A DNA stretch of 16,208 nucleotides from Promethearchaeota archaeon Loki_b31 (GTDB lineage: Archaea > Asgardarchaeota > Lokiarchaeia > Sigyniarchaeales > SOKP01): the NCBI GenBank assembly GCA_005222975.1, contig NJBI01000065.1:1-16208 (forward strand), given 5' to 3'. Both the position numbers and the translations under genes were made by a program. Shown here piece after piece: positions 7,331 through 10,397 of this stretch (the stretch's first letter is position 1; each line of letters opens with the position of its first letter). Below the pieces are notes generated by a model. The model had not been told where the DNA came from, did no database searches, and saw only the letters and a list, made by a program, of their open reading frames with translations.

Positions 7331-8462
7331 TTATCTTTCTAAAGCTTTTTCTTTAAGTTTTACTTTTCTTTCCATTATTTTATCGTAAAGGTCATCCATT
7401 GTCGGATAAGAAATGAATTGTCTTTCTCTTTTATGGAGTTTAATTGCTTCAGAGGGACATTTAATAACACAATTTCCACATCCTATACAACGTTTCCGCA
7501 TGATCGAGGATATATCATCAATGAGCGTTATTGCCTCCATTGGGCAAATCTCAACGCAAGTTCCACAACCTGAGCATAGATCAGATTCCACATCAGCGTA
7601 AAAGTTAGTTATTGTAAGATCTCCGGGATTTGGTAATAATTTAATTTTTGATAAGCCTTCACAGCAACAACTACAGCAACTACAAATGATTGTTAAATTT
7701 TGTGAGTTGTCAGGTTGAAGCACTAGTCCTTCTTCCTTATTTTTTCGTAGAATTTCAAGAACTTCATCTTTACTTATAGAACGACCCCCATCCTTGCTCT
7801 ATATATAGTTCTGCTGCAAATCCAAACGCTAAACATACTTCTCTCCGAGAAGTCGCTTTACATGGTTGTTCTAAGATGTCCTTTATTTGCCTACAAAGAC
7901 AATTAGTTACCATATATGGTCCATCAGTTGTATCAAGAAGTTTTATGACATCATCGTAATTACTAATATTATGTTCAGATTCTATACTTTGCTCAACTGG
8001 AATTACCCGTAATTGAGCACCCTTCACTTTTATAGCTTCCGCAAGCCATTTATTACCAAAATAATCGTGAAAATCTTCTATAAATTCCTTTGTTAGCTTG
8101 TTTACTTGGAACTCAGACATTCCAATCATGAGTAAAGCGTTACCGTAATATTTCTTTTCTGCCTCCCTTTTAAACATAAGAAGTCCTTTTTGAACCATTT
8201 TATCCAAAATCTGTTCTAATTCTTCTTTTGAAATTCCAGACTCTTTCGCACGCTCGTAAATGGTATTTAAAGGTTCAAGGTCTCTCTCCCATCCAAATTT
8301 TAAAAACATAGCAATTTTCGCTTCTTGGGGCGCGAATAGACGCTTTAATAACTTAATATCGGACCCAGATTTTGTTGAAGGAAATCCTAATGGCATTTTA
8401 TCAAGATGCTCCTGTAATTTTCGATACAGGGCAATGTTTTCGTTGTTTAAACTCATAATCAT
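7331..8462 (-). pseudogene. 4Fe-4S dicluster-domain protein (~376 aa) split by a 1-nt frameshift
   Basis: ORFs 7770..8462 and 7331..7723 join seamlessly (EQGWG-RSISKDEVLEILRKNKEEGLVLQPDN) if one G of the G5 run (C5 at 7785-7789) is removed. Contains CxCR, CSCCSCCC and two CxxCxxCxxxCP motifs. Either a real frameshift or a homopolymer error. Confidence 0.85.
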
Positions 8463-8580
8463 TCCTTTAATTTTTTTATTTTAATCTTAATGCTGAAAAT
8501 TATCAAAACAACTAGTTAAAGAATGTCTTAATGATAAAAAATATATCCTAATGTAATAAATAAAAGGTTGTTTATTATTC

Positions 8581-8695
8581 GAAAAAGATTAAAGTAAGGA
8601 TTTGTGCAAGTTTATTTTTATAGATTAATTAAAGGAACTTGATAATTATGGTCGAAAGAAAAAGATTAAATGTTGGCCTTGTACAAGTTTATTTT
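8581..8695 (+). repeat. Imperfect 38-nt direct repeat (8581-8618 and 8658-8695)
   Basis: GAAAAAGATTAAAgtaaGGatTTGTgCAAGTTTATTTT versus GAAAAAGATTAAAtgttGGccTTGTaCAAGTTTATTTT, 31/38 identical by hand alignment. The second copy is cobO coding sequence. Confidence 0.8.
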
Positions 8696-9216
8696 GGTCG
8701 GGGTAAAATTGCTATTAATAAATAGTAATGCCTATAGGCAAGACCACTGCAGCTTTAGGACAAGGCCTTCGGGCTACAGGTCATGGTTTTAAAGTATTTA
8801 TGATTCAATTTATGAAAGGATACCCTCAATATGGGGAAGTTATGGCTGTAAAAGGAATTCAAAATTTCGAATTGAAACAGTTTGGAACGCCAGATTTAAT
8901 CGCAACTCCCGGAGAAATTGACTTTGAAGAAGGAAAAAAAGGTATGGCGTTTGCTGAGAAGGTGATTATGAGCGATGATTACGATGTCGTTATTCTTGAT
9001 GAAATTGGTGTTGCAGTCGAATATGGAATTGTAAATGTTGACGATGTATTAAAATTGATTGATAATAAACCTGAAAAAGTTGAATTAATTATGACTGGTG
9101 GACCTAAGATGCATCCTAAAATTAAGGAGCGCGCAGATTTGATCACTGAAATGAGAATGATTAAACACTACTACGCTTCAAAAGGGATTAAAGCTCGTCT
9201 TGGCATTGAATATTAA
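8648..9216 (+). CDS. cobO: Cob(I)alamin/cob(I)yrinate diamide adenosyltransferase, interrupted: join(8648..8706,8736..9216), 179 aa
   Basis: Upstream segment MVERKRLNVGLVQVYFGRGK plus downstream GKTTAALG...IQFMKG...ILDEI...ELIMTG...ADLITEM..IKHYY..GIKARLGIEY gives a full CobO/BtuR. The ORF-track start at 8728 lacks half of the P-loop. Confidence 0.92.
8707..8735 (+). other. Candidate 29-nt bulge-helix-bulge/loop (archaeal tRNA-type) intron in cobO mRNA
   Basis: 4-bp helix GGGU(8701-04)/GCCU(8730-33), 3-nt bulges AAA(8705-07) and AUA(8734-36), 9-bp inner stem 8708-16/8721-29. Removal restores GRGKGKTT in frame. Confidence 0.72.
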
Positions 9217-9236: not shown

Positions 9237-10397
9237 ATGGGCGTTATAAAGAAATTATCGTCAGCGTTTATAAAGCTGTATAATGTAAAGATAAAAGATG
9301 TCGTTGTAGATCACCACAAATATCTTGGTAAAAGAAATAATTCGCTAAAAATTTACGAATCTTCGCCTAAAAATATGATTTTCTCACCATTTAACATAAC
9401 TACTGATCATATAGATCGTTTAATACTAATTAATTTCGAAGAAGACCCTATTTATTACGCAATTGAACTCCAGATTTTTTGTATAGCTGGTGAAAAATTG
9501 CCTATGGTGATTATGTACAGAAAAGATGACTTGATAGACATCTATTATACCAATGAAGCAATTATCGAATATAGAAAGAAATTGATTGAGAATTTATTAA
9601 CTAATGTTTCGTTTAATCAACTTGAAGAAATTGATTTTAGATTTCAAACAGACGATATGGGTTTAGACGCTTATCTGTTTTTGAAAGACAAGTTAGAAAA
9701 AAATATCGAATTTAAAATTAAGGAAAATACGCCTGGAAGAGAATTAACTGCGATGTTAACTCCAATCGGTGCCGCTAGCAAAAAGCCACAGTATTTTCCA
9801 ATAGTATATCTCAATAAATTTGGAATGGTAATAAAGAAAGACACAGAAATTTTTATAAATATTCATGGAGTTTTGAGAAAACCCGTTGAAATGCCATTCC
9901 GAATGAACGGGATGTATATTTATTTAGCGCGATATTCTTTGGAACCGATTATCAGTAATTGGAATAATGCCTATAGTGGGTGTTTAAATTCAATATTAAT
10001 AGATCCCGCTAATATAGATGTAAAAAATGAGAATTTATCATACAAAATTTTAAACAATGGTGGTTATTACGAAATAAAAAAGATTTCGGGAAAAGATGAG
10101 TTTGGTCATACTATCTCTTTTGAATTTTCTCCCGCAATCCCTAATTTAATTACCCTCAAAAGTAACGTGAATATTAAAGGTAAATTCTCTTGTTGTATTG
10201 ACGATAGAAAGGGTATATTTGCCGGGGAATTCTATATTAATCGTGTAGGCGATATAATTTCATTTAGCATTCAACCAATAAAAGGATGGCAACCGTTTCC
10301 AGGAAAAATATGGCTTAAAACTTATAAATGGAATGCAGATATAGATATTCTTGAAAAGAATAATATAAGAATTCAATCAAATTGGTATAGAATTTAA
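9237..10397 (+). CDS. Hypothetical protein (386 aa)
   Basis: Long ORF 20 nt downstream of cobO. No motif recognised. Confidence 0.8.
   Translation: MGVIKKLSSAFIKLYNVKIKDVVVDHHKYLGKRNNSLKIYESSPKNMIFSPFNITTDHIDRLILINFEEDPIYYAIELQIFCIAGEKLPMVIMYRKDDLIDIYYTNEAIIEYRKKLIENLLTNVSFNQLEEIDFRFQTDDMGLDAYLFLKDKLEKNIEFKIKENTPGRELTAMLTPIGAASKKPQYFPIVYLNKFGMVIKKDTEIFINIHGVLRKPVEMPFRMNGMYIYLARYSLEPIISNWNNAYSGCLNSILIDPANIDVKNENLSYKILNNGGYYEIKKISGKDEFGHTISFEFSPAIPNLITLKSNVNIKGKFSCCIDDRKGIFAGEFYINRVGDIISFSIQPIKGWQPFPGKIWLKTYKWNADIDILEKNNIRIQSNWYRI

Follow-up and report, generated by a model that had tools for sequence, protein, structure and literature searches.

A predicted tRNA-type mini-intron splits the P-loop codons of cobO in a Lokiarchaeia-type Asgard archaeon

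The closest known case of a protein gene interrupted by a tRNA-type intron is the crenarchaeal pre-mRNA of the pseudouridine synthase gene cbf5, which carries a bulge-helix-bulge (BHB) intron in Desulfurococcales and Sulfolobales (Watanabe 2002; Yokobori 2009, PMC2738675). Our literature search found splicing of archaeal coding sequences documented for cbf5 of Crenarchaeota only (PMC2738675, PMC7714728). Relaxed motifs, of the class written HBh′, are known from introns that sit at non-canonical places in archaeal pre-tRNAs (Marck and Grosjean 2003; PMC5829648), and a 46-nucleotide (nt) BHB intron in the 5′ untranslated region of Haloferax volcanii HVO_1309 was shown by circRNA-seq and an in vitro assay (PMC7714728). 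For Asgard archaea the same search returned no report of such introns in protein genes and a single intron paper, on tRNA genes. Here we describe an insert of 29 nt in the cobO gene of Promethearchaeota archaeon Loki_b31, located at positions 8707-8735 of a 16,208-nt stretch of DNA (contig NJBI01000065.1; the whole stretch is called the window below, and all cobO features lie on its plus strand). Very probably the insert is an mRNA intron of tRNA type, spliced by the splicing endonuclease EndA and the ligase RtcB.

Such an intron would resemble that of cbf5 in several ways. Both are small, of tRNA type, and lie within the coding sequence at codons of a catalytic motif; both have an unconventional or relaxed BHB (in cbf5 mostly), cut between bulge bases two and three; both depend on a hetero-oligomeric EndA, a dependence that is predicted for cobO; and in both the annotation mistakes the intron for a frameshift, and its scattered occurrence across the gene tree is taken to reflect gain and loss. 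In contrast to cbf5, the cobO intron interrupts a metabolic P-loop enzyme of a Lokiarchaeia-type Asgard host, and lateral transfer with co-converted flanks is visible in the sequences. Splicing of cbf5 is backed by cDNA and in vitro cleavage, whereas that of cobO is inferred from sequences. With the HBh′ introns of pre-tRNAs the cobO insert shares its size range, the succession of 4-bp helix, 3-nt bulge and inner helix, the lack of a closed second bulge and the implied use of EndA and RtcB, but its substrate would be an mRNA without a tRNA body. One strand of its central helix is formed by an Arg and a Gly codon, so that coding and structure constrain the same bases, unlike in pre-tRNA introns. 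HVO_1309 is a parallel in that EndA acts on an mRNA, outside tRNA and rRNA, as is proposed for cobO; its intron lies in an untranslated leader and leaves the reading frame intact, whereas the cobO intron breaks it.

The frame opened by the ATG at 8648 encodes ...LNVGLVQVYFGRGK, continues as IAINK and halts at TAG 8723 and TAA 8726; these two stops (8723-8728) end the unspliced frame. A second frame starts at the ATG at 8728, reads MPI-GKTTAALG... and extends to the stop codon at 9214-9216. It matches profile positions 14-172 of PF02572 (CobA/CobO/BtuR) with an E value of 5e-48, and positions 1-13, corresponding to strand 1 and half of the P-loop, are missing from it. Exon 1 supplies the residues ..VQVYFGRGK, which are contiguous with GKTT in intronless homologues of the family. 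Excision of 8707-8735 yields GGT AAA GGC AAG ACC ACT, encoding the P-loop GRGKGKTT within a gene of 179 codons; excision of 8708-8736 is equivalent and gives an identical product. In this arrangement exon 1 (8648-8706) comprises 19 codons and two bases of a Lys codon (M..LNVGLVQVYFGRG-K), exon 2 (8736-9216) includes the stop codon, the predicted spliced junction is GGT AA + A GGC AAG ACC, and the protein reads GK-GKTTAALGQGLR across the join. Unspliced mRNA cannot give the 179-amino-acid (aa) CobO because the exon 1 frame stops in the intron and the product of the internal ATG is devoid of strand 1 and half of the P-loop. An earlier note on this DNA, made from the letters alone, had described the start at 8648, the double stop, the resumption at GKTTAALG and an excision restoring the P-loop motif in a 179-aa protein. 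The sequence reads exactly so, and the restored junction is the one found in intronless homologues.

When relatives, the genus and species-representative genomes were searched with exon 2, 84 distinct cobO genes with identities of 66% or more were obtained. An insert occupies exactly the same position in 19 of them, and in the other 65 the stretch TAYTTYGG-NGN-GGN-AAR-GGN-AAR-ACN is uninterrupted and equals the predicted junction. Metagenomes were scanned with a pattern in which only exon bases were fixed and 28-40 bases were left free: 33 of the 34 contigs found were cobO with such an insert. The two sets combined comprise 36 distinct sequences, whose inserts are 29 (10 sequences), 30 (16), 31 (1), 32 (2) or 33 nt (7) long, and every one of them contains an in-frame stop. 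As this includes all inserts of 30 and 33 nt, whose lengths are multiples of three, the insert can never be read through. Assembly error was ruled out as the source of the insert, because inserts at the identical codon position come from assemblies of many studies. The earlier note had proposed a check of related cobO genes for an insert at the same site with compensatory base changes; at least 36 distinct sequences carry a same-site insert, and its stem shows compensatory changes.

The intron-bearing genes differ at synonymous positions by 0.5-0.8, i.e. near saturation, and the ratio of non-synonymous to synonymous differences (pN/pS) amounts to 0.17 in exon 1 and 0.21 in exon 2. Both exons are under purifying selection and thus kept as protein. 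A decaying pseudogene struck by a small insertion would account for the broken reading frame and for the truncated automatic annotation, but 36 distinct copies are free of other lesions and the structure of the insert has been kept by compensatory changes (see below). Because purifying selection has retained both exons as protein, we assign this explanation a next to negligible probability. The earlier note would have seen a refutation in decay of the gene together with inserts of unconserved structure; we found a conserved inner and central helix and selected exons.

Homology places the excised segment at one of two equivalent positions in the window. The ambiguity is absent from two relatives, L112 and L119, whose 5′ border reads GGTAAT: there, the junction Lys, which is invariant in 65 of 65 intronless genes, is lost unless the cut follows the second bulge base, and the 3′ cut then falls after the second base of AGA. 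Both unpaired triplets always start with A in the 36 sequences. The 5′ cut predicted from L112 and L119 is after the second bulge base and agrees with the EndA rule; a cut between bulge bases two and three has likewise been reported for cbf5 (PMC2738675). The cuts put forward in the earlier note, AA^A and AU^A (8706|8707 and 8735|8736), give the same junction as that of the intronless homologues and are unambiguous in these two relatives.

The elements of the predicted structure are the following. A central helix is formed by GGGU of exon 1 (8701-8704) and GCCU of the intron (8730-8733). It is followed on the 5′ side by the bulge AAA (8705-8707), with a predicted cut after 8706, and on the 3′ side by the unpaired triplet AUA (8734-8736), with a predicted cut after 8735. 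The inner hairpin (8708-8729) has a stem of 9 bp, 8708-8716/8721-8729, and a loop at 8717-8720; it is part of the minimum-energy fold of the window sequence. On its own, the window sequence would leave the motif unconvincing, not beyond chance, and the structure counts were made on an alignment of the 36 sequences (A2).

In that alignment eight aligned pairs of the inner stem are 96% paired, and five of the eight change on both sides, for example from U-A to C-G or A-U and from A-U to G-C; the 9-bp stem of L110 is different throughout. These values were reached neither by shuffles nor by slid registers. The central helix, with GGGY in the exon and GYYY in the intron, is paired in 98.6% of cells, its first pair being G-U (32 sequences), A-U (1), G-C (1) or A.C (2). 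The first two bases of the 5′ bulge, AA, are invariant, the bulge being AAU in L112 and L119, and so is the first A of the 3′ triplet. As comparative data these lie well beyond chance. The outer pairing between the exons, 8695-8699/8742-8746, is of another kind: 83% of its cells are paired, two of its five pairs are broken in a third of the sequences, and a search for covariation in it found none among the 36. The base after the 3′ triplet, G8737, faces G8700, and the sole exon-exon pairing lies 5 nt further on. The elements present are those of the relaxed HBh′ class: a 4-bp helix, a closed 3-nt bulge AA(A/U), an inner helix and a 3′ triplet starting with A. We class the motif as HBh′ and not among closed BHBs because the outer exon-exon helix is not conserved. 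Of the three helices drawn in the earlier note, the inner stem thus stands, with its compensatory changes among relatives; GGGU/GCCU is well kept among relatives and absent from the minimum-energy fold; and the closing helix UGGUC/GACCA, present in the window sequence, is not a conserved feature.

Codon choice favours an involvement of exon 1 in the pairing. The third base of the Arg codon is G in 18 of 19 intron-bearing but in 8 of 65 intronless genes, and the Gly codon after it has a pyrimidine in third position in 19 of 19 versus 43 of 65. Tests on these counts overstate the significance, as the relatives are not independent and the flanks travel with the intron.

Several observations weigh against an EndA-spliced intron and have to be set beside this evidence. 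The fold of the single sequence is no stabler than those of shuffles (z = -1.1, 29 of 200 shuffles being as good), and the minimum-energy fold pairs GCC 8730-8732 with GGC 8737-8739 and is without GGGU/GCCU. This alternative 3-bp mini-hairpin fits equally and is equally well kept in the alignment (98.1%), so that pair counts in the 36 sequences fail to separate it from the central helix. Variation in the central helix, the first pair excepted, is one-sided (G-C/G-U, U-G/C-G), and its exon strand is also constrained by the Gly and Arg codons. The 3′ bulge has no conserved closing helix, which departs from the strict hBHBh′ definition. Flanking exon bases travel with the intron, and the codon-choice association may partly reflect linkage, not selection. 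Four sequencing runs aligned to the locus gave no contig bridging 8706|8736 in spliced form and are uninformative on splicing: contigs from the true RNA runs match parts of exon 2 and of the following gene (90-99% identity) and do not cross the junction, and the sole contig that does cross it, X1, is from a probable DNA run and contains the insert enlarged by four bases, as a 33-nt variant in an L001-like background. Finally, an in-frame NTG, the first base of which is never C, lies 8 nt before exon 2 in 36 of 36 inserts.

The last point bears on the possibility that the RNA is not spliced at all, and that cobO is expressed in two pieces (a 25-aa peptide and a 162-aa protein from ATG 8728) or as the 162-aa protein alone, with the hairpin serving translation restart or having no role. 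Stop and start nearly abut (TAG TAA TG), and the 162-aa form is what gene callers annotate from the intron ATG (8728-8730), which is in frame with exon 2; dozens of CobO entries in databases are 162 aa long, as gene callers start at the intron NTG. If the cobO mRNA is spliced, this ATG would be a decoy. The invariance of NTG is explained without translation, because its U and G are paired bases of conserved helices. The 162-aa form is without Pfam positions 1-13, yet purifying selection on exon 1 is as strong as on exon 2, which is hard to reconcile with an internal start alone. ATP binding is not to be expected of a P-loop that is split and has additional residues on either side of the break. 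The two-piece reading also leaves unexplained the pairing between exon 1 and the intron, the codon choice, the variable length and frame of the insert and its exact deletion in 65 homologues. We regard expression without splicing as distinctly unlikely.

Splicing by EndA requires a suitable host enzyme. The window is contig 39 of a metagenome-assembled genome (MAG) of 99 contigs and 3.5 Mb, 92% complete, whose closest relatives are MAGs deposited as Promethearchaeota or Promethearchaeia (Lokiarchaeia-type Asgard archaea). The genome encodes two EndA paralogues, on the minus strands of L122 (ORF 1453-2055) and L123 (ORF 1435-2040). Paralogue 1 has the Tyr, His, Lys triad and aligns over its full length to the catalytic subunit of the Aeropyrum pernix heterotetramer (3p1z_B, E 3e-34), with no gap in the crenarchaeal specific-loop region; paralogue 2 is without the His. 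From these features paralogue 1 looks catalytic and paralogue 2 structural. RtcB is also encoded (562 bits). Asgard archaea have been described as having an (alpha-beta)2 EndA with an L1 loop conferring broad substrate range (PMC5829648), and the predicted EndA pair together with RtcB would provide the machinery that relaxed motifs need. As a separate observation on this genome, ARAGORN found 23 tRNA genes only and flagged 12 of them with introns, some implausible; this outcome agrees with a report that tRNA genes of Asgard archaea are heavily interrupted (bioRxiv 10.64898/2026.10.13.758758).

The insert might be removed from the RNA by some other nuclease and ligase pathway, or by self-processing, and not by EndA at the bulges. 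The 3′ site, which is not in a closed 3-nt bulge and which the alternative hairpin would place in a 4-nt loop, speaks for such a route. The geometry is that of a relaxed HBh′ motif (4-bp helix, 3-nt bulge, inner helix), with cuts two bases into each triplet, and heterotetrameric EndA with the specific loop has been reported to cut relaxed HBh′ motifs (PMC5829648, PMC2738675); it is this type of EndA that the genome is predicted to encode. A length of 29 nt is far below self-splicing size, and an Rfam search gave nothing above threshold. Group I and group II self-splicing introns were ruled out, the inserts measuring 29-33 nt against a ribozyme core of hundreds of nucleotides. Removal by a pathway other than EndA is thus very improbable in our judgement.

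In phage T4 gene 60 a gap of 50 nt is bypassed by the ribosome. The cobO insert is likewise a short coding gap with a hairpin, which stands at the start of the gap, and with a stop codon inside, and a programmed hop over its 29 nt could be imagined. Unlike gene 60, cobO is without matched take-off and landing codons that would give GKGKTT: the triplet before exon 2 is AUA, ACA, AAA, AGA, AUG or AAG, and two invariant residues would be lost in a hop from one Gly codon to the other or from one Lys codon to the other. The stop is found 5-9 codons inside the gap, away from the take-off codon, and the conserved helix that exon 1 forms with the end of the gap is no feature of bypassing and has no counterpart in gene 60. 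We consider bypassing extremely unlikely.

From the evidence above we infer cleavage and ligation of the cobO mRNA, which would proceed as follows. In the pre-mRNA, GGGU of exon 1 would pair with GCCU of the intron, and the 9-bp intron hairpin would stack on top. The 5′ cut site would then lie in the 3-nt bulge AAA between the helices, and the 3′ cut site in the unpaired AUA after the central helix. A heterotetrameric EndA, composed of a catalytic subunit with a crenarchaeal-type loop and a structural subunit, would cut after the second base of each triplet, and RtcB would join the exons to give the mRNA for a 179-aa CobO with the intact P-loop. At the DNA level, the intron moves between cobO alleles by recombination, taking a few flanking exon bases along. 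The view of the earlier note, that this is a spliced protein-coding gene, possibly in an Asgard archaeon, is supported by site conservation, compensatory changes, selection and the host machinery.

In eukaryotes, the HAC1 and XBP1 mRNAs are processed by the nuclease Ire1, which recognises two stem-loops, and are joined by a tRNA ligase (RtcB in animals), as part of a regulated stress switch. The cobO case would be similar in the non-spliceosomal excision of a short mRNA segment, the change of frame and the predicted joining by a tRNA ligase. It differs in that the proposed nuclease is EndA, not Ire1, and in that the regulated switch is a feature of HAC1 and XBP1.

The intron is polymorphic among close relatives, at shallow depth. 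On a maximum-likelihood tree of the exons its presence needs about 10 changes, 9 of which are forced by well-supported branches. The flanks of L086, which has a 33-nt intron, and of the intronless L109 are 88-98% identical, and the two differ by the intron and by six synonymous changes within about 10 nt on either side. These six changes make the L086 flank identical to the L001 type, and the L086 intron is itself L001-like. One 33-nt intron sequence is shared by L152 and the L141/L146 group, with exon 2 sequences that are no more than 76% identical. Because identical 33-nt introns sit in genes so diverged, the intron has evidently been passed laterally between cobO alleles with short flanks, by recombination at the DNA level. 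A further pointer to lateral movement is that contiguous proteins of 179 and 184 aa with the exact predicted junction are found within a cluster of at least 90% identity; one of these proteins lies on a contig of 23 kb. Precise losses probably occur as well. If homing introns and inteins are a guide, a seat in the most conserved motif of cobO would help transfer.

Some further sequences touch on these events. The X1 contig is about 97% identical to the window over 8515-8753 and has CTAG inserted after 8721, and its 33-nt intron resembles that of the distant L086/L141 group; the lineage that donated the transferred intron may have been such an L001-like genome. Four database proteins (P0131, P0135, P0004 and P0122) are the contiguous CobO of 179/184 aa with the predicted junction that cluster with intron-bearing genes at 90% identity or more. 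P0131, on the 23-kb contig, is probably an intronless DNA allele, and P0004, P0122 and P0135, present in Logan assemblies only, could be RNA-derived. In a true RNA run, contig X4 (depth about 20) has 8943 connected to 8740 ("goes back 204") by a back-joint that begins 4 nt inside exon 2; another contig links opposite strands, at 8817/8989. Were the source a relative with AGGT at 8736-8739, AGGT would be common to both sides of the back-joint, and with the spliced mRNA as partner the common stretch would be AAAGGT. Candidate explanations for the X4 back-joint are a circular RNA, a template-switch chimera and an artefact of assembly.

Other genes of the genome are interrupted in the same manner. 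A structural descriptor alone gave 110,535 motif hits, of which 6,815 passed a loose open reading frame (ORF) filter and 600 groups a stricter one; usable candidates required a narrow filter and Pfam searches with single exons. Three further inserts were found in this way: one of 30 nt in an AAA_5 ATPase gene (G000:C45:8619-8648), at position 126 of 139 of the profile and with the junction ..GTFE|LSHPFLDRF; one of 30 nt in a thiolase gene (G000:C58:47823-47852), after Thiolase_N position 52; and one of 32 nt near the end of a DeoC-family aldolase gene (G000:C99:11800-11834, minus strand). All three have the same helix-bulge layout, and their exons match consecutive parts of one Pfam family or a domain cut at the exon end. 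The fourth of the four candidates tested was a false positive, consisting of two complete adjacent TldD/PmbA genes. The earlier note had suggested a genome-wide scan of this kind. It seems rather probable, with considerable room for doubt, that the cobO intron belongs to a genome-wide mobile population of EndA-dependent mini-introns in Lokiarchaeia-type protein genes, which would take their seats in the best-conserved motifs and be passed on between diverged alleles through gene conversion of short tracts.

The earlier note had also linked adenosylcobalamin synthesis to RNA splicing. Nothing indicates such a tie, because unrelated genes of the same genome hold the same kind of insert, and a regulatory link specific to B12 was dropped for want of evidence. 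The relevance to cobalamin is limited to the fact that, in this 92% complete genome, no match to a second cobO and no PduO-type enzyme were found.

As to the surroundings of the gene, an A/T-rich, TATA-like box is read in the sequence at 8611-8623, about 25-35 nt upstream of ATG 8648, and is kept in the nearest relatives; it would be the promoter of a leaderless or near-leaderless cobO mRNA. In several relatives (L006, L007 and L010) the start position of cobO reads ATC ATT AGA AAA AGA..., with a stop just upstream and without an in-frame ATG, GTG or TTG, which suggests an unusual start codon or an overlooked start. The flanking ORFs, 7770-8462 (minus strand, 230 aa) and 9237-10397 (plus strand, 386 aa), matched no Pfam family at E 0.001.

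If the cobO intron is what it appears to be, gene calling in such genomes would be systematically wrong, and interrupted genes may be overlooked or misjudged when pathways are reconstructed. The archaeal splicing endonuclease would act on more kinds of substrate than has been supposed, and the locus would offer a bench-testable system for the origin of interrupted protein genes near the origin of eukaryotes. Should the mini-intron population also prove real, mRNA splicing by the tRNA-splicing machinery would be routine in the prokaryotes most closely related to eukaryotes.

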